DNA from: an uncultured Candidatus Bathyarchaeia archaeon
GTDB taxonomy: Archaea; Thermoproteota; Bathyarchaeia; Bathyarchaeales; DTEX01
NCBI GenBank assembly: GCA_964584965.1
Contig: CAZPBM010000023.1
Location: 713-64,712 of the forward strand
DNA: 64,000 nt
Direction: 5' to 3'
Below are positions 43,070 to 64,000 of this stretch, piece after piece. Each line of letters opens with the position of its first letter. Position 1 is the first letter of the stretch. The position numbers and the translations under genes were made by a program. A model generated the notes under the pieces. The model was not told the DNA's origin. It searched no databases and worked only from the letters and a program-made list of their open reading frames with translations.

Positions 43070-43077
43070 TTCTTACT

Positions 43078-44340: not shown

Positions 44341-44344
44341 AGCC

Positions 44345-45771: not shown

Positions 45772-46767
45772 ATGAGCCTTGACGTAATAAGCTTAGGAGA
45801 ACTTTTAGTTGAGATTATGCGAAAAGATCTAGATGTACCACATGATGTTCCAGGAATATACCAAGGACCGTTTCCAAGCGGAGCACCCGCCATATTCATC
45901 GACGCAGCAGCAAACCTGGGTTTAAACTCAGGCTTTATAGGCGTTATAGGAGACGACGATTTTGGCAATCTATTGCTTAACCGCCTAAAAAACGATGGAG
46001 TAAACACGGAATACGTCCGAATTGCTAAAGGATACACGACTGGCACAGCTTTTGTCATGTATTATTCTTCTGGTCAAAGAAAATTCATTTTTCACTTAAG
46101 ACATTCTGCGGCAGGACAACTTTGTGCAGACGACATACGTGAAGAATTTGTTTCCAAAGCAAAGGTACTTCACATTATGGGATCCTCTTTAGCTATTAAT
46201 GAAAATGTCCGAGACGCATGCTACAAGGCTGTTAACTTAGCGGGAAATACAAATGTTGTGGTGAGTTTCGACCCAAACCTTAGACCTGAACTTTTGGACG
46301 CCGAGACAATTAAAAAAATGTGCGAACCTGTAGTGAAAGTTAGTCAAGTTGCGTTTCCAAGCAAAGACGAGATAATTGCATTAACAGGAATTGATAATCC
46401 AGTTGAGGCTGCACGAAAGCTTCAAACCTTAGGTCCCGACACAGTCGTCGTCAAGATGGGCTCCATAGGCGCTTTGGTTGTTACACACAAAAAGGTCTTT
46501 TTCGAACCAGCCTTTAACGTTAAAGAGGTTGACCCAACAGGAGCAGGCGACGTCTATGACGCAGCATTCATTTACGGAGTTCTAAAAAGCCTTCCGATAG
46601 AAAAAACAGCTGAGGTTGCCAGCGCAGCAGGTGCAATAAAAGTCACAAAATTCGGGCCTATGGGATGTCCCTCCTCAATCCGCGAGATAGAGAAATTTGT
46701 GAGATGCACGCATAAGAAACCTGTGCCAAACGAAATTTTAGATTTACTAAGCGCAAATATTAAGTAA
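45772..46767 (+). CDS. PfkB family carbohydrate kinase
   Basis: The protein has N-terminal GELLVE and the C-terminal catalytic motif DPTGAGDVYDAAFIYG. Confidence 0.85.
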   Translation: MSLDVISLGELLVEIMRKDLDVPHDVPGIYQGPFPSGAPAIFIDAAANLGLNSGFIGVIGDDDFGNLLLNRLKNDGVNTEYVRIAKGYTTGTAFVMYYSSGQRKFIFHLRHSAAGQLCADDIREEFVSKAKVLHIMGSSLAINENVRDACYKAVNLAGNTNVVVSFDPNLRPELLDAETIKKMCEPVVKVSQVAFPSKDEIIALTGIDNPVEAARKLQTLGPDTVVVKMGSIGALVVTHKKVFFEPAFNVKEVDPTGAGDVYDAAFIYGVLKSLPIEKTAEVASAAGAIKVTKFGPMGCPSSIREIEKFVRCTHKKPVPNEILDLLSANIK

Positions 46768-46874
46768 TCTCGCTCACATACATAAGAAAAATTTTGATAT
46801 GCACATGTTGTTCTCTCAGTTTTTGGATACCTAGCCTCTTTAAGAGTCTTTTAATTCTAGCCCTCCTATGTAAA

Positions 46875-48131: not shown

Positions 48132-48294
48132 CTGTGATTAGGCTATAACAATGTTTTAGACCCAATTATTGACATTAAACTTATATTATTTTCCCAAAAT
48201 GACCACACATCTAAGTCGCATTTTATCCAAAAAAATTCGGCACCATATTCACTGGTTAATTCGCGATATCAATCATTTCCGGTGTTTTCAAGGG

Positions 48295-51200: not shown

Positions 51201-51378
51201 GCAAAGTAATCTGTTTCCAAGTGGCGTCGTCAAAATCAGGTTCGCTTGCATTATGAGCTTCACCTTGATGGAGCTTCCAAGAAATTTTCTCACGGTAACT
51301 TGTCAGCTCCTTTTGTTTTTCTATGAGATTACGCATAAGAAGCGAAGAGTTTTCAAAGTCGTAGTGCATGAAGAACAA
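48295..51378 (-). CDS. Glycoside hydrolase family 38 alpha-mannosidase (no signal peptide)
   Basis: HAHIDINWLWPW, EPDTFGH and NQFHDILCGSG are GH38 signatures. The 1027-aa protein has a hydrophilic N-terminus. Confidence 0.9.
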   Translation of the reverse strand: MFFMHYDFENSSLLMRNLIEKQKELTSYREKISWKLHQGEAHNASEPDFDDATWKQITLPVTVDARKGEFWLRTRVVVPKDISGIEISGSAVTMQSGIIMHKTEVYVNSRKILSPAYWTELRGPRIVLDERTEPENEHLVAVHIFPKYEPVDVPVFNVFYSNIEKVAFEIDSFIQELRFAEILDKALTEKVIAEFDLKVFQENPSALIEEIEKARTKLSPLANKAKEFKVHLVAHAHIDINWLWPWTDTVNTIKNTFETMIKLLDRYPDFHFSQSQALTYTIVEEKFPDLFEAIKKRVQKGSWDVTASMWVESDLNMSGNEALARQFLLGKRYIREKFGKEPFVCWEPDTFGHIWTMPQILKKAGCDSYYLTRCAKEVISQWESPDGSRVTAFASIYNNAVTPRGIMELVLYLYKRYGLKTSMFVYGVGNHGGGATVEDIEAAYALQKKAVFPEIFFSSTHSFFKQVEKEPNFPKIPIIRDELQFAFDGCYTTHGDIKFYNRLCENLLVDAEKLSALSGIYDKDILRNAWLSTLMNQFHDILCGSGTAQAYEYPFELAETIIKTANEVIDSSFRKLAEKIGFSKHGIPIIVFNSLPWRHVGIVKVKVPKPLIPQNPVIVSSEKSEESIVQVNDDEVLFLADVPSLGYKTYYLVEGEKKAAMTSIALNENTLENEYFRVDIDTASGTIESLYDKVAQRFVFKKCRYNYSRPITRPVFNNLLQVLYELPHNMSAWIIGEIGRTENLIRNCKIELVESGPLRSTIKVTRAFKDSKITQFISLCKGAQRIDFSVIIDWKEVADDKTEAPMVKVAFTPILGNSKATFEIPFGYIERPADGTEVPALRWIDVSDEKYGVSLLNDSKYGFDVKGNTVRMTLVRTSYSPDPKPDQRIHKINYYVYPHQNSWKEALTFRKGYEVNHPLRAYVVTERLSKRSAPEEYSFIQVKPENVVLSCFKIAEDSNDYVLRLYDATGSGAKVELSFGFNVKEAYESDLLERKLKLVAIEGKSLCFTLQPFEIKTLLVSIREMPT

Positions 51379-51410
51379 GAGAATAGGGGGACATAATAAA
51401 ATTTACGTAT

Positions 51411-51439
51411 TGCTAATGCTTTTCAGTTTTTCATTAGCA
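51411..51439. promoter_or_regulatory. 8-bp inverted repeat (TGCTAATG-N13-CATTAGCA) in the GH38 / NPP divergent promoter region
   Basis: The arms are 51411-51418 and 51432-51439, ~33 nt upstream of the GH38 start codon. Confidence 0.25.
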
Positions 51440-51467
51440 TAAGCATAAATAAAGAATCAAAGCCCGT

Positions 51468-53588
51468 TTGCATATTTGCACTTGTTGTGTTAATAGGACT
51501 TTACATTCAGAAGTAGCTAAGACATTTATATCTGAACTTATTCTTTCAACTGCCATGAAGGCTAAGAAACTTATACTGCTTGGATTCGATGGGGCGATGC
51601 CTGAACACTTCGAAAAGTTTTTGGATGAAGGAGTGATGCCTAATATTTCCAAGTTAATTAAAAATGGCGTTTACTCCAGAGCTCTTCCTGTACCCCCAGT
51701 GGATTCGCCTACAAATTGGGTGACAATAGTTACTGGAACATGGCCTGGTACTCACTGCATAACAAGTTTCACTACTCATCTTCCAGGCGACCCTTTAGAC
51801 GTTGGAAGGTCAACAGTAGGTTTAGATTCAACAACTCTGTGCAAGGCTGAATTTTTTTGGGACGCTGCTGAAAAGTCTGGGAAAAAATGTTTAGTTATGA
51901 ATTATTTGTGTTCGTGGCCACCGACCTTTAAGAATGGGATTTTAGTCGGCGGGCCGTCACCATCTGGTTATGCACTTGGGTGGAATAAAGGAATAGCTGT
52001 CAATTTCATTTCAGAAGCGCCGAAATCAAAAGAGACACGTGACATATTTGAATTCCAAATTAAATTAAAAAAAGCAGAAGGATGGAAAAGCCTTCCAAAA
52101 ACATCTTCTGTGCCTTTGGAGGCAGATGTTCCTGGAAACTTTTCTACACCGAAGTTATCATCAGACGAGTGGCAACAAGAATGGCAAAAAATGTTTAAGG
52201 CAAAGATGCAAGAAGGAGAAGAGAGCGTCCCTATTTGGGATCCAACATATCACTTGTTGATTGTTGATTCAATAAATGAAGGATACAACTTAGTTCTCTT
52301 TTGCCGAGAGAAAGACGCTTCTAACCCATTAGCAGTTTTGAAACAAAACGAGTGGAGCGATTGGATTTACGATAAGATTTTTGACGGAGAACAAAAAGTC
52401 GAAGTAGGGTTCAAGCTTAGGCTTAACGAGATTTCATCTCGGGGTGACAAAATTGAACTGTTCAGAACCATCTTATACAAGGTCGAAGGATGGACATATC
52501 CACAAGAATTAGCAAAGGAAATCACAGAAAACGTGGGAGTGTATGCTGGCGGTTTTGAAGCGTATACTGGTTATAAACATCCTCTTCGTTTGGAAAGACC
52601 AAAGCTAATTGACATATATTTTGAATGCGCATGGTATCAGATGAACTATTTCGTTAACGTTGCCCGTTTCCTAAAAGATCGATATGACTGGGACATTCTG
52701 GTCACCTCACTTCATCTGCAGGACGAAATAGGGCATCAGCTTGGTTTTGACGGAATTGACCCAGCAGCTCCAAATTATAGGCCTGAGAAAGAACAGGATT
52801 ATTGGAACATAATAAGAAGAATGTACGTGCTTATGGACGAACAAGTTGGAAAAATGGTTAACCAATTCGGTGATAAGGACACATTAATTGCAGTAATATC
52901 TGACCATGGAGCTTTGCCAATAAGAAAGGCGATCTCAATAAATGGTTTGTTACAAGTAGCTGGTTTGCTGACGGTGAAATTTGACGAAAAAACGGGGATT
53001 CCAAACATCGATTGGTCAAAAACAAAAGCATACAACCGTCCAGGGTTCCCTATGGAATACATATGGATCAACGTGAAAGGAAGGGACCCCCAAGGAATCG
53101 TAAATCCGGGAAAAGAATATGACGACGTAGTTGACCATGTCATAAGCCTACTTTACGGGCTGAAGGATCCTGAAACAGGAAGGTGCCCAATAGCCTTAGC
53201 GCTGTCAAAAGAAAACGCAAAATTGTTGGGTCATAAAGGGGAAAGAGCTTCCGACATCTTGTATTTCTTTAAACCCGGCTATACTGGGGATCCAGGTCCA
53301 GTCCCGTTACCTAGCGAAATAAAATTTACTGAACATGAGTTTGAAATGATGTTGTCCTCGCGGCCTAGTGGAGGAAACCACTCTGGATTTCTACCCACAG
53401 CAAGGTTTGGCGGATGTTCAAATAACGGCGTCTTTGTCGTTTCTGGTCCGGGTGTCAAAAAGGGATATATTAGGATAGAGCCAATGATGCTTGTAGATGT
53501 TGCTCCAACACTTGCGCACTTACTTGAAATTTCTGTTCCCGCTCAAGCTGAAGGGCATGTTCTCTATGATATTTTAAGCCATCAATGA
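51468..53588 (+). CDS. Alkaline phosphatase superfamily protein (nucleotide pyrophosphatase/phosphodiesterase-like)
   Basis: KKLILLGFDGAMPEHFEKFLDEGVMPNISKLIKNGVY and VISDHGA are present. The likely true start is MKAKK at 51555. Confidence 0.75.
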   Translation: MHICTCCVNRTLHSEVAKTFISELILSTAMKAKKLILLGFDGAMPEHFEKFLDEGVMPNISKLIKNGVYSRALPVPPVDSPTNWVTIVTGTWPGTHCITSFTTHLPGDPLDVGRSTVGLDSTTLCKAEFFWDAAEKSGKKCLVMNYLCSWPPTFKNGILVGGPSPSGYALGWNKGIAVNFISEAPKSKETRDIFEFQIKLKKAEGWKSLPKTSSVPLEADVPGNFSTPKLSSDEWQQEWQKMFKAKMQEGEESVPIWDPTYHLLIVDSINEGYNLVLFCREKDASNPLAVLKQNEWSDWIYDKIFDGEQKVEVGFKLRLNEISSRGDKIELFRTILYKVEGWTYPQELAKEITENVGVYAGGFEAYTGYKHPLRLERPKLIDIYFECAWYQMNYFVNVARFLKDRYDWDILVTSLHLQDEIGHQLGFDGIDPAAPNYRPEKEQDYWNIIRRMYVLMDEQVGKMVNQFGDKDTLIAVISDHGALPIRKAISINGLLQVAGLLTVKFDEKTGIPNIDWSKTKAYNRPGFPMEYIWINVKGRDPQGIVNPGKEYDDVVDHVISLLYGLKDPETGRCPIALALSKENAKLLGHKGERASDILYFFKPGYTGDPGPVPLPSEIKFTEHEFEMMLSSRPSGGNHSGFLPTARFGGCSNNGVFVVSGPGVKKGYIRIEPMMLVDVAPTLAHLLEISVPAQAEGHVLYDILSHQ
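51470..51479 (+). promoter_or_regulatory. GCATATTTGC motif, copy 1 (candidate operator)
   Basis: The same 10-mer occurs in reverse complement at 55040-55049, in the MFS promoter region. Confidence 0.2.
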
Positions 53589-53759
53589 TAGACTATTTTT
53601 TGGCTTCCTGGCTTCCCTTTTGAAAAAATTTTGTTAAAAAATTGGCGTTGCACCATATAATTTAAAAGATACGTGAGAAATACCGGTTTGTGTTGGGTAA
53701 AAAACACGTGGTTAATATCCGTCAATCTGTGCAATGAAGACCCAAAATTTTGGTTTCCT

Positions 53760-55019
53760 CTATCCAGAACGATCCAATGTATCTGGTATTCTTACTAAAA
53801 CAGGTATTACGCCAAGTAATTCTATAATTATTGGGAGGAGAATGACTAGTTCCATCTGCCCGATTTGCCACAGAAAACCACCTAACATGAATGCTGGAAT
53901 AGTTACAAGCGTGTTAAATATGCCAGTAAATCCAAACCATCTTCCTCTTTTTTCCGTTGGAACTAGTTCCCAATACATTGTTGTGAATGGAATCCAACAG
54001 ATGCTATTCAGTCCCTGCATCATTCCCACTGCTCCCATAATTCCAACTAGAATTAGGCTTTCCGGTGTTGGAGCAAAAAGTAACAAGAAGGTGCCCGCGT
54101 ACGTGATGGGACGAAGTAAGTAGAATGCTTTTTTTCTGCCAATTTTGTCAGCCATTCTTCCTACTGGAATCTGCAAAAGTGTTGACATTATTATTCCCGT
54201 AGTGCTTACGATTCCTAAGATATACGCATCCGCCTTAACGACATTTACCATCCATAGTGGAACATAGGATACTGACACGCTTGAGGCAAAATAAAAGAGG
54301 CTCATTGCAATTGTCCATTCTTTCAGCCATTTTTCGCCTTTAAAAAGATCCTTAAATCCTTCAATGAAGTTTCCACGCTCCAATGTGGACTCTATGTTTA
54401 CGAACTTCCTATGCCGATTTTCCATTACGAAAAAGATAAAAAATATTATGAAAAGCGTGAAAATCGTCTGGATAATATATAAAGGGCGGATTCCTTCTGT
54501 GGTTATTCCGCCATATGCTACCACTATTGCAGCTGCTATCACAGGTGCAATAATGCTTGGTATCGACCATACGGTCCGCGCGAAGCTCATCGCTTGAGCT
54601 CTTTTTTCTGGCTTCGCTTCTTCTATTAAGACAAGGTCGGGAAGGGAATAAAGCATTCTGAAACTAATCTGGGAAAAGATCATTGCTGGTATAAGCATTA
54701 ACCAATTAGAGGCGCTGCTGTAGATTCCTGAAACAATGGCGGAAAGAACTAGACCTAAAATTATTGCTGTTTTGACGCCAAACCTGTCTATAAACAAACC
54801 CATTGGAGCGGAGAATATGCAATATGCTATTCCACCTATACTATTTAGTGAACCTAGTTGAAGAGCATCCGCCCCCAAAGCAGTAATGTATAGCTGAGAA
54901 AATTGGGAAGGCAAACTACTTGCCCAGTTGTAGATTCCGATTGCGGCAATCATAATTTTGGATCGTTTATCGAAAATTTTCAGAAAATTGAACACTGTTC
55001 GTTTAATGTCAGCTTTCAT
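53760..55019 (-). CDS. MFS transporter
   Basis: The 419-aa protein has ~12 hydrophobic segments and MFS-like loop motifs (GLFIDRFGVK, GRMADKIGRKK). Confidence 0.85.
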   Translation of the reverse strand: MKADIKRTVFNFLKIFDKRSKIMIAAIGIYNWASSLPSQFSQLYITALGADALQLGSLNSIGGIAYCIFSAPMGLFIDRFGVKTAIILGLVLSAIVSGIYSSASNWLMLIPAMIFSQISFRMLYSLPDLVLIEEAKPEKRAQAMSFARTVWSIPSIIAPVIAAAIVVAYGGITTEGIRPLYIIQTIFTLFIIFFIFFVMENRHRKFVNIESTLERGNFIEGFKDLFKGEKWLKEWTIAMSLFYFASSVSVSYVPLWMVNVVKADAYILGIVSTTGIIMSTLLQIPVGRMADKIGRKKAFYLLRPITYAGTFLLLFAPTPESLILVGIMGAVGMMQGLNSICWIPFTTMYWELVPTEKRGRWFGFTGIFNTLVTIPAFMLGGFLWQIGQMELVILLPIIIELLGVIPVLVRIPDTLDRSG

Positions 55020-55062: not shown

Positions 55063-55486
55063 CATGACATTGTTTAACACTGTTATATCTATAAATAAGC
55101 TTTTTGCAACAAGACCCATTTTTTCAAGCATCAGAAACTGCTTGCATTTTAAACAGTAATATCTAAGACCAACGAGTTCTGGAAGGAAGATGCACAAGAA
55201 AAGAAAGCCAACAAAAGTGTCGTGGACAAGTTCACTAAGTTCGCTTTAATGCTCAATGAAATTGCTGATGTGTAGATCGATAAAAAAGGGCTAAGACATT
55301 AGTATGCGGATAACTTTTCGGATGAAAACGAAGAATCTGAGCGTTTCAATTTCATTATATCTTTGCTCATACAGCTGTTTGTGAGATGGATCAAAGTATT
55401 GTGTCAAATTTGATTAATAGAAAAATTTTAAATACTTTAACAATGTTATATGTCGAATGTCACATAAAAAATGTAAGTGAACTAAA

Positions 55487-57535
55487 ATGGCTGAAACAAA
55501 AAATGAGTTAAATCCAGTTACTTTGAAAGCAATACTCACAGCAATTCTGATGTTCGCAATCTTTCTTCCACTGTCACAGATTCTTGCTTTGTACAACACT
55601 AAACCATCCACATACTATGGATTTCCATTAACATTCTTTTGGCTAACTCTGCTGTTCTATGCCTTAGGTAAAGTAAGCAGTAAATTGAGGCTCACTGCGT
55701 CAGAGTACGTCTTCGTGTTTGTGGTAGTGAACATCCTTGCCGGAGCACGAGGAATGAGCATGTGGGCTCAATCAGAAAACATGCTAAAAATATCTGATCA
55801 GATGTTCACCATAGTACCATCTGGACTATTCTGGAATCCATCTCTATACGACCAATTGGTACCAGAAATCTTCTTTCCCACTGCTCAACGATCCGAAATT
55901 GCAGGTATGATTATGATGGGGATTAGACCTGGTCAAGTGTTTCCATGGTCGGCCCTTGCGACACCATTAACTATTTTCTCAGCTTTCACTTTCTTCCTAA
56001 TGGCTATTTCCGCGTTCATATCTTTCGCTATACTAAGCCCAATCTGGACTGATGTAGAAAAACTGCCGTTCCCAATTCACGCCCTTCCAGCTATCGAATT
56101 CACGAGAGATTGCCTCGAAAGAGGCAAAGCATTCAACTTCAAAGAAGGAGATAGAAAAGTTTTTTGGATATGCTTTGCACTGGGTGCTTTAGCGTCCATA
56201 GCTCCTTTAATTGTTGAGCTTTATCCCACAATTCCTTTGCTGGGCGCCATTAACTTCGGCGAAATACGTGTACCCATACTTGCTTCAGTATCAGCGGTTC
56301 TACCTGGATGGATAGGATATGGATATTGGATATTTCCGCAGTTCTTCATTGGACTAGTTGTTTCAAACGTAGCATTGATATCAGCTGTCGTGGCTTATCT
56401 TATACATTGCGTCTACAACGTGATTGCTGTACAAGCAGGGTGGTATGTGTACTACACACCTGGAAAAGAGGTTACAGGCGGATACTGGGACTTACCTTCA
56501 GGACAGGCTCCTTTACCGCTCAGATACATAGTCATGCCAGGCGGTTTCATTGGCGTCGGTATTGTGATGCTTTGGATATGTAGGCACAGAGTCATAAAGG
56601 TCGTCAACGCGTTGATTGGAAAAGAGAATCCAATTGAGTCAGGATTATCATTACGGCTAGTAAGCTACGTAGGTATCATCAGCATAGTACTATGTCTAGC
56701 GTTATTCGTTGCAATCGGAGTACCCATATTAATAGGTCTAATGTGGCTAATAATGTGGATCTGTTTCAACATAGCAGCAGCCAGAGCAGCCGCAGTATAT
56801 GGTGGAGCAGGAGGATACCTTAACACCAGCGATTGGAAAATAATGTATGCCTCTGGTGCTGGTTTAGGTTATTGGCCAGCTTCACCGCCAGGAAATCAAA
56901 CATGGTACATTACACGGGCTATTACCTATGGTGCTTCTGGTCCCACATCAAGAAGCGGTGGAATGTTTGACATTGTATCGCTGACCGCATTGGCGCACAT
57001 CCATAAGTCTTTCAACTTGAACCTAAAACATGTGTTCATAGCGGTCTTGGTAACAGCTGGAATTGCGACTCCATTGATATATCTCTCTGGCTACTGGTTT
57101 GCGGTGCACAGCGGTGGGCTTCTAAGTGTAAATTCTATGCCATACTACGATTGGATGTTGCCCTACCAAGGAGTAAGTTTCGCTTCATTCACTGCAGGCG
57201 GAGACTTTAACTTAGAGACAATATGGTTCGTCGCAGGAATAGGCTTAGCTATAGGCATATACGCGTTGAAAATGATCGTTCCCATACTTCCGATTGACCC
57301 AACAATTCTCACCGTCTTACTGTGGAATCCTGAGTATTACTGGATGATGGCAATCGCATCACTCGCAGTAAAATACGTAACAATAAGAATCGTTGGACAA
57401 ACGACATACATGAGATACGCCAAGGCGGTAGTCGTAGGCGCTATGGCTGGATTCGGAGCCGTTTTCACGATAATGGCTCTTAGTCACTTAGGGTTAGTGG
57501 CAATACCAAAATTCCAGAGTCAATTTACGCCATAA
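55487..57535 (+). CDS. Large polytopic membrane protein of unknown function (possibly distant OPT-like)
   Basis: The 682-aa protein is almost entirely hydrophobic helices. It contains the motif WTDVEKLPFPIHALP and is a paralog of the ORF starting at 62183. Confidence 0.6.
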   Translation: MAETKNELNPVTLKAILTAILMFAIFLPLSQILALYNTKPSTYYGFPLTFFWLTLLFYALGKVSSKLRLTASEYVFVFVVVNILAGARGMSMWAQSENMLKISDQMFTIVPSGLFWNPSLYDQLVPEIFFPTAQRSEIAGMIMMGIRPGQVFPWSALATPLTIFSAFTFFLMAISAFISFAILSPIWTDVEKLPFPIHALPAIEFTRDCLERGKAFNFKEGDRKVFWICFALGALASIAPLIVELYPTIPLLGAINFGEIRVPILASVSAVLPGWIGYGYWIFPQFFIGLVVSNVALISAVVAYLIHCVYNVIAVQAGWYVYYTPGKEVTGGYWDLPSGQAPLPLRYIVMPGGFIGVGIVMLWICRHRVIKVVNALIGKENPIESGLSLRLVSYVGIISIVLCLALFVAIGVPILIGLMWLIMWICFNIAAARAAAVYGGAGGYLNTSDWKIMYASGAGLGYWPASPPGNQTWYITRAITYGASGPTSRSGGMFDIVSLTALAHIHKSFNLNLKHVFIAVLVTAGIATPLIYLSGYWFAVHSGGLLSVNSMPYYDWMLPYQGVSFASFTAGGDFNLETIWFVAGIGLAIGIYALKMIVPILPIDPTILTVLLWNPEYYWMMAIASLAVKYVTIRIVGQTTYMRYAKAVVVGAMAGFGAVFTIMALSHLGLVAIPKFQSQFTP

Positions 57536-57609
57536 CCCAATCCCCATTTTTATAAGTTCACATCGGTTTTTCCATAAAGAATTCAAGTCTCGGAGCATGT
57601 TAGCTTCCT

Positions 57610-60600
57610 ATGAAAAGAAAATCGTGTGAAATTAGTACATTGCGTAGGTCTCTGAAAGCGCTGATTCTGGGATTACTATTTTTAACTATTAGTATTAACA
57701 TATCTCCGATTTTTTGCACAGCCAACGAAGACTCAATTTATCAGTCAAATAATCTAAGCCGAAACATTAGCGACTCGAATTTAGACTTTTTTCTTAATAA
57801 AGACTTATACAATAATGTTCTTGAAAGAATAACGGTTTTTGCAAACTGTGGCTCCAGAGTTACTGGGTACGCTGGAAATTACATAGCAGCCCAGTATATA
57901 ATCGATGAATTTTCTAAACTAGGACTTAATGTAACAATTCAGAAATTTAATGTAACAGTGCCCATAGACTTCGGTTCAAATGTAACAGTTATTTCTCCAA
58001 TAGAAAGGGTTCTTAAAGGATACGCTGTCTGGCCGAACGGGATACAAACTTCTCCTGTTGACAGCTTAGAAGGCACATTAATATATGTAAAAGGCACCTC
58101 TCCGGAGGATTTTGACCAAAAAACGGTAAAAGACTCCATTGTACTGATGGAATTCAACTCAGATTCAAATTGGCTTTATGGCGCAGACTTAGGAGCCAAG
58201 GCCTTTATATTCATTGAGCCGTCTGACTCTTCAATTAGCGAAAGCATGAAAAAATTTGTTGAAGCCCCAATTTTTTTCCCCAGACTTTTGGTGAAATCAG
58301 AAGATGGAGAGATGCTGAAAAGATTAGTCCTCGATGACCAGTCTGAAGTCAGAGTGAAAATCAGTCTCAGAATGGAATGGAGAACAGTTGAAACCCAGAA
58401 TATTATTGCAATGATTAATGGTACGGGGAATCCTGAAGACGTCATAGTTCTTGCGTCGCATTATGATTCATGGTCTGTGGTTCCAGCCATCTCATGTAAC
58501 GCTCATGACGCAACTGGTGTATCGTGGCTTATTGAGTTAGCTAGATATTTTTCGATTAACCGTCCAGTTCGATCTGTCATGTTTGTAGCTCTCTCTGCAC
58601 ATTGGCAAGCTTTAGCTGGTGAAAGGGAGTTTATCGACGATTTCTACTTCAGTAACCAAGTTCAAACAGGGGCAATTAAACCTTGGATTTTTGTAGGCTT
58701 AGGGCCATTCTCAAGCGATTCCTCGAAAATACAATTACTTTACACAAGCTTTTATGCTGGAGTTGGCTCAACTTCGACTAATGTTCCAAACAGGTTTTCT
58801 TGGCTGTTAAGACGTATTACTCAAACTTACCTCTTTGATCCTGCTTTAAGGTCTGTTTCTCAGAACCTTATTAGTGTTGATTTTGATCCTTCGCTTCTCG
58901 TTGAGGAGCGGTTGTCTACGACTTCAATGTGGTGGGGAACCATCCAGCAGCCAATAATGCTCGAAAGCGAAATACCTCTCTCAACAGGCGCCATAGCATT
59001 CAATATTCTAAGTTCACCTGTAGTTACATATCATAAATTCATAGGTACAACCGTAAATGACCTTAATTTAATAAACATGGAGAACCTAAAGCCACAGTTC
59101 CTCTTATCGGGTTTCATTATTTCATCTATACTCAATGATAATGAATGGTCCATCGTTTGGAACGATGTGAAACCCTCAAGAAGCAGATATGAGGGAAGCA
59201 GCTTAATACCATCTCAAAATGCAGGATACATCACATTGGAAGGTAAGATACTGTCCTTTAACAATAGCAAGGGTTGGTACGAAGCCTTTCCCAACGCACT
59301 TGTCCAAGTGCAAGGAACGTCCATCAATAATCCGCTGGCAAAAATAATCACGTTCGCAGACACTGATGGAAATTTCATAGTTAAAGGAATAACGCCATAC
59401 ACTCTGACTTATCAGAAAAGCGCGTGGAAAATTACAGCTTGGGGAATAGATCAAAAAAGTGGCAACATATTGTATGCGCCAGACCTCGGCATCCAAGGTA
59501 GCGGCGTCTTTTCGAATATTGTATATCCACTGTCAAGTCCTACAAAAGTTTCCGTAGTTGTGGCAGAACTCAGAGCAATAACAGTTTTTGACTTGCTGGA
59601 TCCTAGATACTTTAGACAACTAGTTATTTTGGATCCAAGGTTTAATACAATTGTAGCCGGGGAGATGTTTGTCTCAACAAACGGATTTCTTATTCCCCTA
59701 GAATTTGAATCCAAAAGCAATTTCCTCACATATGGATCTTATTATGATCTTTGGGAAACAGTAGGCGTAGTTTTTGTTCCCCCATTCTCGAAAAGCACGT
59801 TTCTTTTTAAGATAGGTGGATCAGGAAGTTCATCTCTAAGTTGGTCTATTTTCATTTCTAATTCAACAGACAATGCACCTGAGGGCCAAGGAATATCTGT
59901 ATCCAACAGTTCTATCGTGATTCCATTCTCAATCTATTGTATGGCATCTGACATCTATAGAGCCACGCAATCAAGGTATGAGCAAATAATGGCTTACAAT
60001 GTTCGAAGCCTAAGCGTAGAGCATGCGCTTAGTGAAGCTCAAAAAAATTTAGCCTTGGTTGAAGAATTATACACAAATAAAAGCTTCAGCGAAGCCTATG
60101 GTCGTGCAGCTTTAGCTTATGCCTATGTTGCCAGAGCCTACAATGAAGTTATGGCCATTATAAACGAGTCAGGCACAAGCATAACTACGCTCTTCATATT
60201 AGCTATAATTGTTTCTTTTGCGTTGGAACGTGTTGTGGTTCAAGCTGAAAAAGGCCTTGTTCGAATATGCTACATGGCGGGATTTGCAGTTTTATCAATC
60301 ATTGCAATGAGCCTCATCCACCCAGCCTACACCGTTATGAGTAATGCAGTCATTGCGAATATCGGGTCAATATTGTTGATAATGTTTGTTATTAGTTTAG
60401 TAATACTGTTCATAGAAGCAGAAAAAATGTCTAAAGCTCTTTCTGTAAAGTTCCTCGGTAAACACAGCATCGAAAAGGCTCGATTAGGAGTAGTTGCATT
60501 AGCCTCTTCAGTATCAACAAACTTTATGAGACGATATAAATTAAGGTCATCCCTCACATTCTTGACAGTTTTTATCGTAAGTGCCTCAATAACGTCTGTA

Positions 60601-62190
60601 GTTTGTATGGCGCCGTACGTTGGAGTAAAAATTTCTTCAAAACCAGTTGGTGCTGCACAGTTAATGTACAAATCCCAAATATTCATGCAAACGAGCCACG
60701 GATTGCCTCCTGATATTTCGTCATCTGAGACAATTACGATTTTGAGACAAATTTTGAAGGATAGCTACAAAGTATTGCCTAGGGTTGTGTATTTTCCCCA
60801 AACTTATTATGGAAACGGAGTTTATCAGGAAGTATCCTCTGAGAACAAATCAATATATGTGAGGTGTATTCTTGGGGTATCATCAAATGAAGGGGTGTTA
60901 CAGGAGGTTCTCACGTCTGGATGGTTCTTCACAGAATTCGCTAAGTGGTCATGCATATTATCCACACAGCAAGCTAGAGCATTAAATGCCACTATAGGCG
61001 ACGTTGTTCGAACAGGCGGTTACGAACTGACTATAGTAGGAATTTATGATGAACTTCTGCTTAGCCAATTTAGTGAGCCAAACGGTCTTGCCTTCGGTAT
61101 TCCAGATCCATCTTACAACTCTCAACTTGCAAAAGACATGGTTAGACCTATAGATCCAGGTGTTCCAATTCCGAATTTGCCATGGGATCTCGTCTTAATA
61201 GTTCCAGAAGAATTTGCAATAAGTCTAGGAGGTGCTGTTCACTCAATAGTTATTCTGCCGTTATCACCAGAAACAAGTGAGAGTGTGATTCAGGCTACCT
61301 CATCTGAAATGGCTTTTGTTTTAGACCAGAACATCGCAGTCGCCTTTGGCGATTCTGTTTCGTCCGTTTCTAGATTACTTTTGTACATTGTTTTCGGTCT
61401 TGAATCTCTAGTGGTTCTTGTGGTTATTGCTACATTAAACATTATGGTCACCATTTTGTCGACAATTCGCGAAAGAACAAAGGAAATTCATGTGTTCGCT
61501 GTGACTGGGCTAACGCCTCTTGGTTCCATGTCTATCTTCATTCTTGAATCTGTAATCTATGCTATTATTGGGAGTTTCTTAGGATATTTTGCAGGATTTG
61601 GACTTAATGCTGTGTTCAGAGGAGCTGGATTGCTGCCAAAGGAGATACCTTTTAATCACATTTCTTCAACGACAATGCTCACGATCGTCGTTATTGTTTC
61701 AGCTAGTTTTATAATGTCATTGTGGCCATCTTTTTCAGCAAGCAAGTCCGTCACGCCATCCCTCTTAAGGAAATGGGAGTTCACCACCAAACCTCATCAC
61801 GATGAGTGGCAAATACCCATACCATCCAGAGCTTCTTCCAAAAACGAAGCAGTCGGCATTCTTAGGTTTCTAAAGGAATATTTTGACGGAGCAGGTGCAG
61901 AAGGACACATGTTTATAATAAATAAAACAAATGAGGTATCTGTTGAGGATGCAACATTAACCCTTACAATTAGGCAAGCTCCTTACGAACTCTTTATCAT
62001 GTCAGATGTAAAGATTCAATTCGTACAAGACACTGAAGGTTACTCGACACTTGTCTATTTGAAGAAAACATCTGGTGATAGAAAAGCGTGGATTGTTTCC
62101 AGCTACTATTTTGTTGATTCCTTGAGAAAACAACTATTGTTGTGGCGAAGCCTTGCCGTTGAGGATCGAAGGAGGTTCATAGATGGCTAA
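57610..62190 (+). CDS. Giant fusion: signal/anchor, M28-PA peptidase-like ectodomain, beta-sandwich domains, TM bundle, MacB/FtsX-type permease module, cytoplasmic tail
   Basis: M28 blocks are RVTGYAGNYIAAQYIIDEF, NIIAMINGTGNPEDVIVLASHYDSW and AHDATGVSWLIELARYF. A CarboxypepD_reg-like stretch reads FADTDGNFIVKGI. MacB-type TM1 is MRRYKLRSSLTFLTVFIVSASITSVV. The FtsX signature is ILSTIRERTKEIHVFAVTGLTP...ESVIYAIIGSFLGYFAGFGL. Confidence 0.7.
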   Translation: MKRKSCEISTLRRSLKALILGLLFLTISINISPIFCTANEDSIYQSNNLSRNISDSNLDFFLNKDLYNNVLERITVFANCGSRVTGYAGNYIAAQYIIDEFSKLGLNVTIQKFNVTVPIDFGSNVTVISPIERVLKGYAVWPNGIQTSPVDSLEGTLIYVKGTSPEDFDQKTVKDSIVLMEFNSDSNWLYGADLGAKAFIFIEPSDSSISESMKKFVEAPIFFPRLLVKSEDGEMLKRLVLDDQSEVRVKISLRMEWRTVETQNIIAMINGTGNPEDVIVLASHYDSWSVVPAISCNAHDATGVSWLIELARYFSINRPVRSVMFVALSAHWQALAGEREFIDDFYFSNQVQTGAIKPWIFVGLGPFSSDSSKIQLLYTSFYAGVGSTSTNVPNRFSWLLRRITQTYLFDPALRSVSQNLISVDFDPSLLVEERLSTTSMWWGTIQQPIMLESEIPLSTGAIAFNILSSPVVTYHKFIGTTVNDLNLINMENLKPQFLLSGFIISSILNDNEWSIVWNDVKPSRSRYEGSSLIPSQNAGYITLEGKILSFNNSKGWYEAFPNALVQVQGTSINNPLAKIITFADTDGNFIVKGITPYTLTYQKSAWKITAWGIDQKSGNILYAPDLGIQGSGVFSNIVYPLSSPTKVSVVVAELRAITVFDLLDPRYFRQLVILDPRFNTIVAGEMFVSTNGFLIPLEFESKSNFLTYGSYYDLWETVGVVFVPPFSKSTFLFKIGGSGSSSLSWSIFISNSTDNAPEGQGISVSNSSIVIPFSIYCMASDIYRATQSRYEQIMAYNVRSLSVEHALSEAQKNLALVEELYTNKSFSEAYGRAALAYAYVARAYNEVMAIINESGTSITTLFILAIIVSFALERVVVQAEKGLVRICYMAGFAVLSIIAMSLIHPAYTVMSNAVIANIGSILLIMFVISLVILFIEAEKMSKALSVKFLGKHSIEKARLGVVALASSVSTNFMRRYKLRSSLTFLTVFIVSASITSVVCMAPYVGVKISSKPVGAAQLMYKSQIFMQTSHGLPPDISSSETITILRQILKDSYKVLPRVVYFPQTYYGNGVYQEVSSENKSIYVRCILGVSSNEGVLQEVLTSGWFFTEFAKWSCILSTQQARALNATIGDVVRTGGYELTIVGIYDELLLSQFSEPNGLAFGIPDPSYNSQLAKDMVRPIDPGVPIPNLPWDLVLIVPEEFAISLGGAVHSIVILPLSPETSESVIQATSSEMAFVLDQNIAVAFGDSVSSVSRLLLYIVFGLESLVVLVVIATLNIMVTILSTIRERTKEIHVFAVTGLTPLGSMSIFILESVIYAIIGSFLGYFAGFGLNAVFRGAGLLPKEIPFNHISSTTMLTIVVIVSASFIMSLWPSFSASKSVTPSLLRKWEFTTKPHHDEWQIPIPSRASSKNEAVGILRFLKEYFDGAGAEGHMFIINKTNEVSVEDATLTLTIRQAPYELFIMSDVKIQFVQDTEGYSTLVYLKKTSGDRKAWIVSSYYFVDSLRKQLLLWRSLAVEDRRRFIDG

Positions 62191-64000
62191 TAACAACCAA
62201 GAAGACATTTCATCATATAAGTCTGGGTTAACATGGAGGAGTTTCCTAGCTTTAGTTACAGCTATATTAATTTTCATGCCCGCGTCCATTTATTTAAATC
62301 TGACAACAGGCGCCGGCACTATAGGAGTAGCAGCATCCTTCGTTATCGCCATTATTTTCAGCGAAATAACAAGGTATTTTGGTCATCCTCTCACTAAACA
62401 GGAATTATTCATAATGTTTTCCATAATTTCTTCAGTGTCAGGGCTTATTGGACCTGCGTATGGTCTTATTTTCAGAGTTTACTATACTACGCATCCCGTG
62501 TTTTCGCATGTAACTCTTTATGGTAAACCCCTAACTAGTTTGATACCCTCATGGTTTGTACCGAAAGACCCAGCTGTCCTTCAAACGCGGAGCTTTCTGA
62601 GTGCTACATGGACGCAGCCAATCACTCTAGTAATTACAATGATAATCCTTTCGCTTATCCAATCGGTTTCTCTTGCGCTCTTCTGTTCTCATCTTTTTGT
62701 TGATGTTGAAAAACTAGAATTTCCATTCGCGAAAATCCAGAGCAGTTTGATTATGGTTCTTTCTGAAGAAAATGAAGAAAACATGAGAATGTTCATTTTC
62801 ACTGTGTTGATTGGACTTGTATTTGGGTTGGTTATTTATGCGCCTCAACTTATTGGTGCGCCTCTAGTTCCTCTCCCATTTATAGATCTTACTTCGTTTA
62901 CCCAAGACATTGTTCCAGGTGCAATTTTTGGAATATCAACCGACATTTTAACATACGCGATGGGAATGGTTATACCTCTGAACTTATCTGTGTGTTTACT
63001 TGTTTCATCCATCATTGTATTCATAGTTGCTAACAATATGTTTTTAGTAACATTTCCAAATGTGTTTCCAGAATGGGTTAGCGAGTACTTTCCAGGGATG
63101 GGCATAGCCCGCATACAATACAGGTCTACCCTGCGAATATGGCTTCCATTCCAGTTTGGAATGAGCATGGCTATGGCCCTATTTTACGTTTTTCTATTGA
63201 GGAAAGAAGTTTGGCAATCATTCAAACTTTTAGGAAAAATAAGAAGTAGAACTCCAGGTCATCTTTCGCTTCCCATAACCCTGCTGATTTTTCTTTTGTC
63301 ATCATTGGCTTCAGCTGGGATTTTCCTCTTTTATGTTCCCGAATATCCGCCAGAAATAGCTATTCTCTTATCCACAGGTTACAGTTTTCTCATGGCATTA
63401 ATCTCGTCGAGGGCTTTAGGAGTAGGCGGCATGAGCCCATCTTTCCCCTATCCTTGGCGTATGATAACCACCTTTACAAATTATACAGGTTTGGTTGGTT
63501 GGGATTTTCAGCCAGCAATTGAAACAGGCGGATCTTCAGGTATAGTCCAGTCAATTAAGATAGCTCACTTGACTGAAACGAAACCCATGGACTACATAAA
63601 AATGTTCGTGTTGGGCAACATCATAGCTCTTCTATTGAGCATAGTATTCTATGAATTCTTTTGGAGAATGACGCCTATTCCATCCACAGCTTATCCTTAC
63701 ACGATGATGTATTGGCCTCAAAATATGTTGGAGCTTCTAATGTATGCCACAAGACAAATACAGATTCCTCCCGAAAGAATAGGAATCGGTATGGGCATCT
63801 CAATAATATTATTAATACTAGAATTTGGTTTGCATAAAATTAGCGTCCCTTTCTCAGCTATAGGGTTTCTGCTTGGCGCCTTTCAGATTCCACCAGCCGC
63901 AACAGCCATATTTGTAGGTTCGTTGTTCAGCAATATCATATTATCTAGAATCATACCGCAATGGAGAGAGCACAAGTACATGGCGATGGCGGGCATTATG
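62183..64000 (+). CDS. Large polytopic membrane protein, paralog of 55487-57535, partial (runs off the right edge)
   Basis: My own translation shows 606 codons open to the window end; the ORF is absent from the track because it is open-ended. It reads MANNNQEDISSYKSGLTWRSFLALVTAILIF...FVDVEKLEFPFAKIQ.... Its ATG overlaps the upstream stop by 8 nt (ATGGCTAA). Confidence 0.6.
   Translation, partial: MANNNQEDISSYKSGLTWRSFLALVTAILIFMPASIYLNLTTGAGTIGVAASFVIAIIFSEITRYFGHPLTKQELFIMFSIISSVSGLIGPAYGLIFRVYYTTHPVFSHVTLYGKPLTSLIPSWFVPKDPAVLQTRSFLSATWTQPITLVITMIILSLIQSVSLALFCSHLFVDVEKLEFPFAKIQSSLIMVLSEENEENMRMFIFTVLIGLVFGLVIYAPQLIGAPLVPLPFIDLTSFTQDIVPGAIFGISTDILTYAMGMVIPLNLSVCLLVSSIIVFIVANNMFLVTFPNVFPEWVSEYFPGMGIARIQYRSTLRIWLPFQFGMSMAMALFYVFLLRKEVWQSFKLLGKIRSRTPGHLSLPITLLIFLLSSLASAGIFLFYVPEYPPEIAILLSTGYSFLMALISSRALGVGGMSPSFPYPWRMITTFTNYTGLVGWDFQPAIETGGSSGIVQSIKIAHLTETKPMDYIKMFVLGNIIALLLSIVFYEFFWRMTPIPSTAYPYTMMYWPQNMLELLMYATRQIQIPPERIGIGMGISIILLILEFGLHKISVPFSAIGFLLGAFQIPPAATAIFVGSLFSNIILSRIIPQWREHKYMAMAGIM

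Follow-up and report, generated by a model that had tools for sequence, protein, structure and literature searches.

A conserved archaeal and bacterial gene trio pairs a giant FtsX/MacB-type permease carrying a degenerate M28-like ectodomain with two OPT-like membrane proteins

Three adjoining genes at the 3′ end of the window, the 64,000-nt stretch of contig CAZPBM010000023.1 from an uncultured Candidatus Bathyarchaeia archaeon that was analysed here, appear to encode the membrane core of a multi-subunit machine that is conserved and as yet uncharacterised; no literature on such a three-gene system was found. The central gene, g2, encodes a 1526-aa giant permease in which a PA/M28-like ectodomain is joined to a type VII ABC (FtsX/MacB-type) module, and it is flanked by g1 and g3, which encode polytopic membrane proteins related to OPT transporters. 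An earlier note on this DNA had proposed either capture, processing and import of peptides or proteins, or remodelling of the envelope. Between these the evidence leans to capture and import, and our leading reading, to which we give a probability of roughly 40%, is the ATP-assisted capture and import of peptide or glycopeptide nutrients.

All features described here lie on the (+) strand. The coordinates of the three co-directional genes agree with the ORF listing: g1 occupies 55487..57535 (682 aa), g2 57610..62190 and g3 62183..64000. The g3 reading frame is open to the window end over 606 codons with no stop, and its full length of 631 aa is seen in two assemblies that run past that point, L001 (JGI) and L002 (Logan). 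The earlier note had allowed for the cluster to continue beyond the window; g3 is followed there, on the same strand, by a phosphodiesterase/sulfatase-like gene (348 aa) and then a GH38 alpha-mannosidase (891 aa); the ABC ATPase sought in the L001/L002 extension is not encoded after g3. An identical g2 is present in these two independent assemblies, and the 1526-aa frame represents a conserved full-length family rather than an assembly chimera. The 8 nt common to g2 and g3 read ATGGCTAA: they hold the ATG of g3 at 62183-62185 and the TAA that ends g2 at 62188-62190. A GGAGG Shine-Dalgarno-like element is located within g2 at 62171..62175, 7 nt 5′ of the g3 start. The overlap is real, and an overlap or gap of at most 15 nt from g2 to g3 is observed in 36 of 48 loci. 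As the genes overlap or abut, g1 and g3 are probably made in step with g2.

The g1 protein has at least 10 hydrophobic segments by hydropathy and matches Pfam DUF6785 (E 2e-19). The part of g3 inside the window matches Pfam OPT from one end to the other at E 6e-8, which clears the gathering score, and full-length g3 does so at E 3.7e-9, a weak match of 32-36 bits that bears out the earlier suggestion of an OPT likeness for g3. Although g1 and g3 give no significant match to each other by BLASTP, the profiles of their families can be aligned along the whole length (hhalign 99.9%, E 2e-35, 582 columns), which confirms the suspected paralogy and identifies the two, at the level of profiles, as true distant paralogues within the OPT transporter superfamily. 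The EKLxFP motif reported at equivalent positions is present in both, and its copies, EKLPFP in g1 (56057..56074, aa 191-196) and EKLEFP in g3 (62708..62725, aa 176-181), fall opposite each other in this alignment. No other stretch in the entire flanking-protein family is as well conserved as E-(K/R)-L-P-F-P, with E retained in 66, L in 64, F in 65 and P in 71 of 72 proteins. The likeness to OPT oligopeptide transporters (PF03169, TCDB 2.A.67) consists of the full-length model match of g3 and the profile-level homology of g1 to g3, whereas the scores are low, g1 belongs to the separate Pfam families DUF6785/DUF6784, and the classical eukaryotic OPT motifs NPG and KIPPR are absent. Neither flanking protein belongs to a characterised family with an unrelated role; to our knowledge, the g1/g3 branch has no characterised member and no OPT protein operates together with an ABC system.

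The g2 protein begins with a hydropathy segment after a basic N-terminus, a signal peptide or membrane anchor (aa 13-38; 57646..57723), followed by a PA plus M28 aminopeptidase fold (aa ~57-509; 57778..59136). The rest of the ectodomain comprises beta-sandwich domains (aa ~525-772; 59182..59925; all-beta in the AF2 model, residues 488-735) with no match in Pfam or PDB sequence searches, and a long helical stalk into the membrane (aa ~774-849; 59929..60156; AF2 helices at model residues 737-757, 764-785 and 789-832). Residues 264-342 match Pfam Peptidase_M28 (E 1e-9), and PDB profile matches include the bacterial PA-aminopeptidase 2ek8 (E 5e-26), nicalin (E 4e-9) and the transferrin receptor, TfR (E 1e-7). 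With the AF2 model of the ectodomain (pLDDT 91.8), Foldseek retrieves 2ek8 at E 3e-23, plus PaAP, BSAP, TfR and GCPII. The active site is degenerate, its positions in the HMM alignment to 2ek8 being H284, D300, H331-W332 (replacing Glu-Glu), P366 and E454. Family-wide, the catalytic Glu position holds His in 63 of 72 sequences and never Glu, the neighbouring zinc-ligand Glu position is aromatic (Trp in 56/72), and the last His position holds Glu in 64/72; of five canonical zinc ligands, two are lost throughout the family and a third in the g2 of this window. Because the catalytic Glu is never present and a zinc ligand is aromatic, the head probably serves for binding and not as an enzyme, most likely as a module that binds free N-termini of peptides or ligands like them. 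The earlier suggestion of capture and processing by this domain therefore divides: capture is plausible, and processing is doubtful since the catalytic Glu and two of five zinc ligands are missing family-wide. Catalysis of some kind at the remodelled metal site (H284, D/E300, H331, E454) is still conceivable. TfR and nicalin, both among the matches of the head, are catalytically inactive M28 relatives that likewise keep the M28/PA fold for binding or scaffolding; g2 is nearer in sequence to bacterial PA-aminopeptidases than to either, and the parallel implies no specific relationship.

Three extra TM helices (aa 850-941; 60157..60432; invariant E873 and H904-P905) precede the FtsX/MacB-type module (aa ~958-1384; 60481..61761), which consists of an amphipathic helix, TM1, a periplasmic core domain and TM2-4. 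Residues 1267-1378 match Pfam FtsX (E 2e-10), with MacB_PCD under its gathering score (E 1e-4), and PDB profile matches include LolC, LolE, MacB and YtrF. A second AF2 model has a pLDDT of 89.5, and Foldseek returns MacB 5lil and LolCDE at E 3e-11, as well as HrtB and YtrF. Pfam, PDB profiles, AF2 and Foldseek thus agree with the earlier description of g2 as an extracellular M28/PA fold plus a MacB/LolCE-type permease, and g2 would be the large subunit of a type VII (MacB/LolCE/FtsX-type) ABC system. In such systems cytoplasmic ATP hydrolysis moves an extracytoplasmic domain and no transmembrane channel is opened. The coupling-loop motif ER..EI...GL.P is conserved, and the invariance of R1289, G1300, L1301 and P1303 in the TM2-TM3 loop still leads us to expect an ATPase partner. 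The family-specific cytoplasmic alpha/beta domain at the C-terminus (aa 1385-1526; 61762..62187; beta-alpha-beta4-alpha2 in AF2) gives weak local Foldseek matches to Bet v1/START/PYL folds. It has 599 matches among 1.84 billion representatives, the best 150 of which are nearly all C-termini of ~1500-aa proteins or their fragments.

The g2 family includes ~96 full-length homologues and is present in at least 227 GTDB species genomes from more than 10 phyla of archaea and bacteria. An OPT-superfamily gene occurs in 67 of 76 informative g2 loci, and the trio, with two such genes beside g2, is retained in 29 of 30 archaeal loci. As the same three families adjoin in dozens of genomes of both domains, the adjacency seen in this locus is more than chance. 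The genes could be mere neighbours, an orphan FtsX-type protein next to two independent OPT-like transporters with no functional coupling, as ~9 g2 loci with adequate flanks have no OPT-like gene and the complex of g2 with OPT-like proteins is a predicted one. However, adjacency in both domains and over 10 phyla, its recovery from g2 and from distant g3 homologues alike, and the frequent start/stop codon overlaps make this very improbable. The module is found in S-layer archaea, Armatimonadota, Latescibacterota, Omnitrophota and Dependentiae and is independent of cell-wall type, and some genomes carry several copies, e.g., four loci in MAG AUK141. One bacterial g2 homologue (P0095) has a LysM wall-binding domain.

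Neighbours of the trio loci are variable and catabolic, including a sugar island, phosphodiesterases and two GH38 genes in this window, GH31, SBP_bac_5 and a fucosidase at others, and M16 and M28 peptidases at bacterial loci, where a canonical M28 peptidase adjoins one operon. No two-component system or other signalling gene, hydrolase partner, precursor peptide or modifying enzyme recurs in the loci, and a radical SAM gene is present in one locus only. The multi-copy loci and variable catabolic neighbours suggest nutrient uptake. The archaeal neighbours are mostly sugar-related, not peptide-related, which counts against peptide import; Tardisphaera miroshnichenkoae, which carries the full system, is described as a polysaccharide fermenter, with yeast-extract growth reported only for a sister species. 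An envelope-remodelling controller of the FtsEX type would instead use the ATP-driven motion of the g2 ectodomain, an EnvC-like pseudo-enzyme, to activate a separate surface hydrolase or reshape surface-layer proteins, with the OPT-like proteins recycling fragments. FtsEX-EnvC, FtsEX-PcsB and FtsEX-CwlO operate in this way through a hydrolase-like partner that is degenerate or regulatory, the Foldseek matches include 8tzk, and the degenerate M28 site, the LysM domain and the adjoining M28 peptidase would fit. We consider such a role unlikely, as the hosts have unrelated envelopes, copy numbers that reach four or more in a genome are unusual for a housekeeping envelope machine, and the hydrolase partner is not recurrent.

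Related loci also encode a ~205-aa FtsX protein without an ectodomain and a LolD-like ATPase, and in many of them a PqqD-like peptide-binding protein is encoded too, along with a new Cys/His protein (c3). The order g2, OPT-like, c3, PqqD, short FtsX, LolD-like ATPase is found in Armatimonadota, Tardisphaera and one Heimdallarchaeon, and again in three loci reached via distant g3 homologues. The short FtsX and ATPase form a stand-alone pair in one Bathyarchaeia genome and accompany other large FtsX proteins in a second Bathyarchaeota locus. None of the four genes is found for this trio in the 64-kb window or 8 kb beyond it (L001), and the genes for its engine are presumed to lie elsewhere in the genome. 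The extra genes also admit an opposite direction, in which the PqqD-like protein and c3 bind a ribosomal peptide, the MacB-type ABC expels it, and the OPT-like proteins serve as conduit. MacB-type exporters expel bacteriocins or darobactin, and, as far as is known, characterised type VII ABC systems all work outward or at the membrane's outer face. The PqqD family matches include lasso-peptide and PQQ chaperones, and the ATPase fits the LolD model only slightly better than those of the darobactin exporter DarD and lactococcin-972-type bacteriocin exporters. Export and maturation nonetheless seem doubtful, given the lack of a recurring precursor peptide or modifying enzyme, the single radical SAM locus, the absence of PqqD and c3 near most archaeal trios including this one, OPT proteins being importers as known, and multi-copy loci with catabolic surroundings unlike biosynthetic clusters.

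For nutrient capture and import, a peptide theme is suggested by the M28/PA fold outside, OPT in the membrane and PqqD inside. The g2 protein would form a heterodimer with the short FtsX, served by LolD-like ATPase(s). In many bacteria, and in some archaea, the genes for short FtsX and ATPase lie beside the module; in Bathyarchaeia they can sit apart from it. Outside the cell, the ATP-driven head would bind peptide-like or glycopeptide-like nutrients and hand them, within a physical complex, to the OPT-like proteins for passage across the membrane, with the PqqD-like binder and c3 of the extended operons acting on the cytoplasmic side. Two points count against import: we know of no characterised type VII ABC system that imports anything, and of none that works with a secondary-transporter fold.

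Among known systems, LolCDE is the best sequence and structure match of g2, sharing the FtsX fold, in which a periplasmic core domain separates TM1 from TM2 in a set of four TM helices, and its two unlike FtsX subunits with LolD-type ATPases offer the closest model for g2, short FtsX and ATPase(s). In contrast to LolCDE, g2 has an extra ~820-aa PA/M28 ectodomain, three more TM helices and a cytoplasmic C-terminal domain, its presumed partner FtsX entirely lacks an ectodomain, OPT-like proteins share its operon, and its module occurs in archaea, where no Lol pathway is known. MacB of MacAB-TolC shares the mechanotransmission fold and ATPase subfamily, whereas here the ATPase is unfused, the ectodomain much larger, and the loci lack a membrane-fusion protein or outer-membrane duct. 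FtsEX with EnvC, PcsB or CwlO likewise ties a type VII ABC to an inactive or regulatory hydrolase-like extracellular module; in g2, however, permease and pseudo-enzyme form one polypeptide, the latter with an M28/PA fold in place of LytM, CHAP or NlpC, and the trio has no link to division genes and occurs in wall-less archaea.

The PADLOC candidates 'CARF_m8--CARF_LolE_TM' and 'CARF_m8--CARF_Beta-galactosidase_LolE_TM' correspond to g2 in its chassis, from the stalk through the 3 TM helices and the FtsX module to the C-terminal domain. The chassis model matches g2 at E 3e-48 and ~1000-aa relatives in some of the same loci at E 1e-72 to 1e-145, but all of these stop at ~685 of 810 model positions, so that the presumed CARF part is missing, and g2 carries an M28/PA rather than a beta-galactosidase-like head. 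The match of the g2 chassis to PADLOC models derived from CARF-linked relatives, the structural match to BceAB (8g4c) and the JGI label 'ABC-type antimicrobial peptide transport system permease' on several homologues could point to BceAB-type sensing or resistance, in which the ectodomain recognises an external antimicrobial or signal peptide and the ABC protects a target or signals. This is distinctly unlikely: the label is a generic COG-derived name, signalling genes do not recur, the last ~125 model positions, a putative sensor domain, are absent from g2, and the OPT-like partners are left unexplained. For nutrient capture and import, the nearest analogy is to the SusC/SusD polysaccharide utilisation loci, a surface capture-and-import pair with many copies per genome and variable catabolic enzymes alongside; the proteins and energy coupling are wholly unlike, and it is the genomic logic that appears alike.

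The last 8.5 kb of the window hold three co-directional genes on the plus strand, as the earlier note had described. In the ORF list, g1 (55487-57535) encodes a 682-aa membrane protein of the DUF6785 type and g2 (57610-62190) a 1526-aa giant, and g3, for an OPT-like membrane protein, is an open frame (frame 1) of 606 codons that runs from 62183 to the window end with no stop. The ATG of g3 at 62183 lies 8 nt within g2, in agreement with that note, and reading of the sequence gives the junction as ATGGCTAA, with a GGAGG 7 nt 5' of this ATG. Five public contigs carry a protein identical to g2, and two of these were retrieved: L001 (24.7 kb, from JGI sample 3300010284) and L002 (from Logan SRR5216256). 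On both, full-length g3 has 631 aa, and the window thus ends within the gene as had been supposed. The note had also raised an assembly chimera as a possible origin of the 1526-aa ORF, which is ruled out by the identical protein on the independent JGI and Logan contigs and by about 96 full-length homologues. The G+C content is even across the trio region (0.39-0.42), and no tRNA or Rfam RNA was found within the window. Sequence reading alone also places A/T-rich TATA-like boxes about 55 nt upstream of g1 (TTTTAAATA, 55426-55434) and in the 74-nt g1-g2 spacer (TTTTTATAAG, ~57546-57556), and these could be archaeal promoters.

The fusion of an M28-like domain to an FtsX/MacB-type permease, first proposed for g2 from its sequence, is borne out by Pfam, PDB profiles, AlphaFold models and Foldseek. 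Pfam identifies Peptidase_M28 at aa 264-342 (model positions 1-77 of 193) and FtsX at aa 1267-1378 (E 2e-10), with MacB_PCD at aa 983-1148 below its gathering score (E 1e-4). A profile of 23 homologues compared with the PDB matches PA-domain aminopeptidases over aa ~43-330 (2ek8, E 5e-26; BSAP) and LolC, LolE, MacB, YtrF and LolF in the C-terminal part. The AlphaFold models, both built on 72-sequence alignments, reach a pLDDT of 91.8 and a pTM of 0.90 for aa 38-870 and a pLDDT of 89.5 for aa 851-1526. In Foldseek, some 470-600 columns of the N-terminal half align with whole PA+M28 aminopeptidases, with transferrin receptor and with GCPII, and the M28 fold with inserted PA domain matches 2ek8 (E 3e-23), PaAP, BSAP and 3iib over about 470-500 columns; beyond this region the model contains all-beta domains and then three long helices. 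A special tie to eukaryotic nicalin/NOMO was considered and rejected, as bacterial PA-aminopeptidases are far closer in sequence.

The M28 site of g2 departs from that of active enzymes. Its key positions were set by HMM alignment to 2ek8 rather than by structural superposition and named with the help of M28 motifs, and column counts were made in 72 homologues. The first His ligand corresponds to H284 (His in 54/72 family members, Tyr in 16/72) and the bridging Asp to D300 (Glu in 47/72 and Asp in 22/72, hence one or the other in 69/72). The Glu-Glu pair that supplies the general base and a zinc ligand is replaced by H331-W332: at the position of the catalytic Glu the family has His in 63/72 sequences and Glu in none of the 72, and at that of the ligand Glu it has Trp in 56/72. 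The second Asp ligand aligns with P366, where 47/72 homologues have Asp, and the last His ligand with E454, which is Glu in 64/72. The g2 domain therefore lacks the Glu-Glu pair and the full set of five zinc ligands (His, Asp, Glu, Asp, His) of an active M28 peptidase, and from the column counts the canonical co-catalytic site is kept nowhere in the g2 family. We read the domain, from its aligned residues, as a pseudo-peptidase with a binding role, in parallel to transferrin receptor or nicalin, with a remodelled single-metal site in the head being conceivable.

The C-terminal half has the fold of a type VII ABC permease, with a four-TM FtsX unit and an extracytoplasmic core between TM1 and TM2, and its Foldseek matches are MacB, LolCDE, HrtBA, YtrEF and YbbAP (E 3e-11 to 1e-6), with MacB (5lil) and LolCDE as the best (E 3e-11). 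By hydropathy, g2 has 1+3+4 membrane segments. The predicted order is an N-terminal signal or anchor, an ectodomain of ~820 aa, three extra TM helices and a cytoplasmic linker, which would be followed by FtsX TM1, the periplasmic core domain, TM2-4 and a 142-aa cytoplasmic domain. The TM2-TM3 loop, which from published MacB and LolCDE structures we take to be the ATPase coupling helix, has R1289, G1300, L1301 and P1303 invariant and E1288 nearly so among 23 diverse homologues, consistent with an ATPase partner having been kept. The C-terminal domain has a predicted beta-alpha-beta4-alpha2 topology that is not Rossmann-like, and gives only weak local Foldseek matches to Bet v1/START/PYL proteins (E 0.01-0.03). 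A search of 1.84 billion representative proteins returned 599 matches to it, and nearly all of the best 150 of these end proteins of ~1500 aa or fragments of such proteins; the domain is therefore family-specific, and the family is large.

The membrane-proximal part of g2 also occurs beneath other heads. The PADLOC candidate-defence model 'CARF_m8--CARF_LolE_TM' matches g2 at aa 805-1517 (window 60022-62160) with E 2.9e-48 over model positions 26-684 of 810, and the '...Beta-galactosidase_LolE_TM' model matches as well. Relatives of ~1000 aa that have no M28 head (L017 1027-3924; L030 9194-12256; L048 659-3766) match the PADLOC models far more strongly, at E 1e-72 to 1e-145, so that the stalk, the three TM helices, the FtsX module and the C-terminal domain constitute a chassis for different heads. 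In every protein examined the match ends near model position 685 of 810, ~125 positions early, and the C-terminal domain of g2 alone has no PADLOC match. An additional domain, which g2 lacks, is evidently present in the founding PADLOC members, and g2 and its relatives probably have no CARF part, as judged from these alignments. A reading as anti-phage defence or CARF protein seems unlikely, since g2 lacks the last ~125 model positions and its C-terminal domain is not Rossmann-like and finds Bet v1/START rather than CARF proteins in Foldseek. No defence genes were noticed near the trio.

The flanking proteins g1 and g3 are, on profile comparison, distant paralogues within the OPT superfamily. 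A resemblance to OPT transporters, proposed in the earlier note from the EKLxFP motifs quoted there, which are present in both proteins, is confirmed for g3 by a full-length match to OPT (PF03169) above the gathering score (32.2-36.2 bits, cut-off 25.8, model positions 2-615 of 623). The g1 protein matches Pfam DUF6785, not OPT, and among 72 flanking proteins scanned 25 have DUF6785 (21 of them with DUF6784 too) and 19 have OPT. Pairwise BLASTP between g1 and g3 is not significant; the paralogy suggested for the two proteins emerges at profile level, where hhalign of 17 g1-like against 57 g3-like proteins from the fetched loci aligns them end to end over 582 columns (probability 99.9%, E 2e-35, 16% identity) with the EKLxFP motifs superposed. 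The stretch E-(K/R)-L-P-F-P is the best conserved among the flanking proteins. No sequence homologue of the flanking proteins, g3 included, was detectable in the PDB, and we know of no characterised close relative of g3-type OPT-like proteins.

The association of these families is widespread. There are 96 g2 homologues in the protein database, mostly of 1430-1600 aa, and GTDB genomes, taken at one per species, hold 227 confirmed loci; 80 of these loci were retrieved for analysis. The archaeal hosts are Bathyarchaeia, Thermoprotei/Thermofilaceae, Brockarchaeota, Thaumarchaeota, one Heimdallarchaeon and the cultured Tardisphaera, and the bacterial hosts are many Armatimonadota along with Latescibacterota, Omnitrophota, Ratteibacteria, Dependentiae and one Firmicutes MAG. 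By our own ORF calling, phmmer and blastp clustering, an OPT-superfamily gene is present at 67/82 loci, and six of the other 15 are too short to tell. Two such genes occur, in several orders, at 29/30 archaeal loci with both flanks, and bacterial loci usually have one, directly downstream of g2. The distance from g2 stop to g3 start is negative at 16/48 loci and at most 15 nt at 36/48. A reverse search found three g3 homologues (25-26% identity), each directly after a g2-type giant of 1654-1714 aa, two of these giants having M28 and FtsX Pfam matches and one FtsX only. The families are thus adjacent across archaea and bacteria in both search directions, a synteny on which the earlier note had made its proposal depend, and it is very improbable that the genes are mere neighbours with no shared function. 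The closest genome match to g2, at 67% identity, is in a Bathyarchaeota MAG of the MFD series; in that locus (L003 9980-16312) g2 is broken into two ORFs, as is g3, probably by assembly frameshift errors rather than as real pseudogenes. Multiple copies are common, with at least six MAGs carrying two to four loci among the 80 fetched.

Many of the related loci also encode an engine. A LolD/MacB-type ATPase adjoins g2 homologues in about 14 fetched loci (with LolD as its best match, E 1e-69), and in extended operons of Armatimonadota, both Tardisphaera genomes (L022, L023) and the Heimdallarchaeon (L065) four further genes stand after or before the module. L022, the Tardisphaera miroshnichenkoae locus CP117708.1:152,901-177,190, contains every part. 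These encode a short FtsX of ~205 aa (E 6e-18), which has four TM helices but almost no ectodomain, a PqqD-family protein of ~140 aa (E 1e-12 to 1e-14), the Cys/His protein c3 and the ATPase, of which archaea have two. The three loci from the distant g3 homologues have the short FtsX and ATPase too. The c3 protein (L034 16499-17473; L023 16075-17175; 17 loci in all, alignment A7) is a cytoplasmic protein of about 320 aa, with no TM segment and with two repeats that each end in a conserved W-x-C ... (D/C)-H motif. It has no match in Pfam, NCBIfam, PADLOC or PDB sequences and no enzyme fold recognisable by sequence, and it appears to be a new family; kinship with the g2 C-terminal domain was rejected (hhalign probability 0.1%). 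A small Cys-rich protein, x20 (129-158 aa, C-x-C ... C-P-x2-C), adjoins the short FtsX in archaeal extended operons only (L023 18361-18834; L065 2186-2572; L022) and has no family match.

The PqqD-like gene, found in at least 11 related loci and adjoining c3 in nearly all loci that have both, brings in RiPP-like peptide export as an alternative role for the module. No modifying-enzyme family recurs among the neighbours, no PqqD-like gene for RiPP-type recognition is present in the window, and such export seems unlikely. A weak PqqD-like match at 47860-48138 (E 0.002) was dismissed, having no Pfam support and lying antisense inside a RhaA-like gene.

The engine was not seen in the window. No cognate LolD/MacB-type ATPase is encoded there or in the 8 kb downstream on L001, where the earlier note had proposed to look for one. 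The sole ABC ATPase of the window, at 31607-32434, was rejected as a partner of g2, being unrelated and paired with an ABC-2 permease (30633-31442) in an exporter pair on the minus strand; an alpha/beta-hydrolase of S9/esterase-like type (29816-30505, minus strand) adjoins this pair, the whole spanning 29816-32434. At 3/28 archaeal and 11/25 bacterial loci a short FtsX is encoded no more than about 6.5 kb from g2, and a search with the short FtsX retrieved 653 relatives. In one Bathyarchaeia genome (L083 10001-11428) the short FtsX and ATPase stand alone among housekeeping genes, and in a second (L084 7086-14080) they lie between two ~950-aa FtsX proteins with other ectodomains, which have CarboxypepD_reg-like heads. 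We infer that the short FtsX and ATPase would be a generic engine pairing with several large-ectodomain FtsX proteins, and that the engine for g2 in this genome would be encoded outside the window.

The gene content around the trio places it in a sugar (mannoside) catabolic neighbourhood in this genome. A sugar-catabolic island directly 5' of the trio (41409-55019) comprises, in order, an MFS transporter (-), a 706-aa type I phosphodiesterase (+), a 1027-aa GH38 alpha-mannosidase (-), a RhaA-like isomerase, a PfkB kinase, a Zn-dependent alcohol dehydrogenase, a mannitol-dehydrogenase-family enzyme and a PHO4/PhoU_div phosphate transporter. On L001 and L002, g3 is followed after a 79-nt gap by a 348-aa phosphodiesterase/sulfatase-like gene and an 891-aa GH38 alpha-mannosidase, both on the same strand, and then by a convergent CbiZ gene. 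A 357-aa protein with a PrcB_C domain (E 2e-7) is encoded at 39319-40392. Elsewhere the neighbours of archaeal modules are heterogeneous, the 98 proteins scanned including four URO-D matches, three each for sulfatase and phosphodiesterase families and two for TrmB sugar regulators; examples are GH31, SBP_bac_5, xylose-isomerase-like and GFO/IDH/MocA enzymes and an alpha-L-fucosidase. The URO-D (uroporphyrinogen decarboxylase/MtaA-like) gene is the most recurrent non-core neighbour, at 12 loci (e.g., L009 14306-15769; L035 17278-18360); one copy (L001 22623-23705) is 6.4 kb downstream of g3, and beyond this family no further conserved neighbour was found in archaeal loci. Among bacterial neighbours are aminotransferases, peptidases and TPR proteins, the peptidase and TPR genes being seen in loci such as L063 (9741-11252), L034 (5179-7826), L051 and L069. 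A small TPR protein immediately precedes the module in five bacterial loci, three Armatimonadota loci have a pair of M16 (insulinase-like) peptidases 5' of g2, and a canonical full-length M28 peptidase (E 3e-37) is found 3' of the Armatimonas operon.

What is conserved is a module in which the large subunit of a type VII ABC system, with its PA/M28 head degenerate, goes together with one or two OPT-superfamily proteins; in many genomes the operon also encodes c3, a PqqD-like protein, a minimal FtsX and a LolD-like ATPase. The best reading, to which we give a probability of roughly 0.4, is that the module would capture peptide-like or glycopeptide nutrients and import them with the help of ATP. 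The g1-, g2- and g3-type proteins and the engine parts would form one machine, in which g2 and the short FtsX may form a heterodimer like that of LolC and LolE, the head of g2 would bind substrate and the OPT-like proteins would be the conduit. Import is preferred because three peptide-handling folds are found outside, within and inside the membrane, because the module is multi-copy with variable catabolic neighbours, and because it is independent of envelope type and enriched in scavenging heterotrophs. FtsEX-like control of a surface hydrolase is judged improbable, to the same degree as RiPP-like export, and BceAB-like sensing or resistance less probable again. Against import, we know of no type VII ABC importer. 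The lack of an engine in the window also counts against it, as do an archaeal context that is sugar-rich rather than peptide-rich and the description of Tardisphaera miroshnichenkoae as a polysaccharide fermenter. A more specific and more tentative proposal is a hybrid transporter, in which an ATP-driven type VII ABC mechanotransmission dimer of the giant pseudo-aminopeptidase subunit and the minimal ectodomain-less FtsX would be physically coupled to the OPT proteins and force large peptides or glycopeptides into a conduit of secondary-transporter type, with the head as extracellular receptor. If true, the MacB fold would for the first time be seen to serve import, and a SusCD-like, substrate-diversified form of nutrient capture would be common to Thermoproteota, Asgard archaea and several bacterial phyla.

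Full-text literature searches returned nothing relevant on these families or their combination, in keeping with the earlier note's view that no characterised system is built this way. The Tardisphaera paper makes no mention of the system, and the databases give the proteins only generic labels ('M28 family peptidase', 'FtsX-like permease family protein', 'hypothetical protein'). The complete operon in the cultured Tardisphaera species makes the system experimentally reachable, and context is gained for DUF6785, DUF6784, a new cytoplasmic domain and the new Cys/His family c3. Bathyarchaeia, Thermoproteota, Armatimonadota, Latescibacterota and Omnitrophota play a major part in breaking down the detrital organic matter of sediments and hot springs, and polymer uptake by such organisms is poorly understood. 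The parts come from known superfamilies, and we rate the whole as a type VII ABC system with unprecedented partners. The ABC-OPT pairing is kept in the genomes of at least 227 species from both prokaryotic domains, often in several copies per genome; if obligate, it would add a new way to energise uptake, or to use the MacB fold, and proof of coupling and of inward direction would make it a new transporter class. To our knowledge, every type VII ABC system described so far acts outward or extracts from the membrane, and every OPT transporter described is a proton symporter that works by itself.
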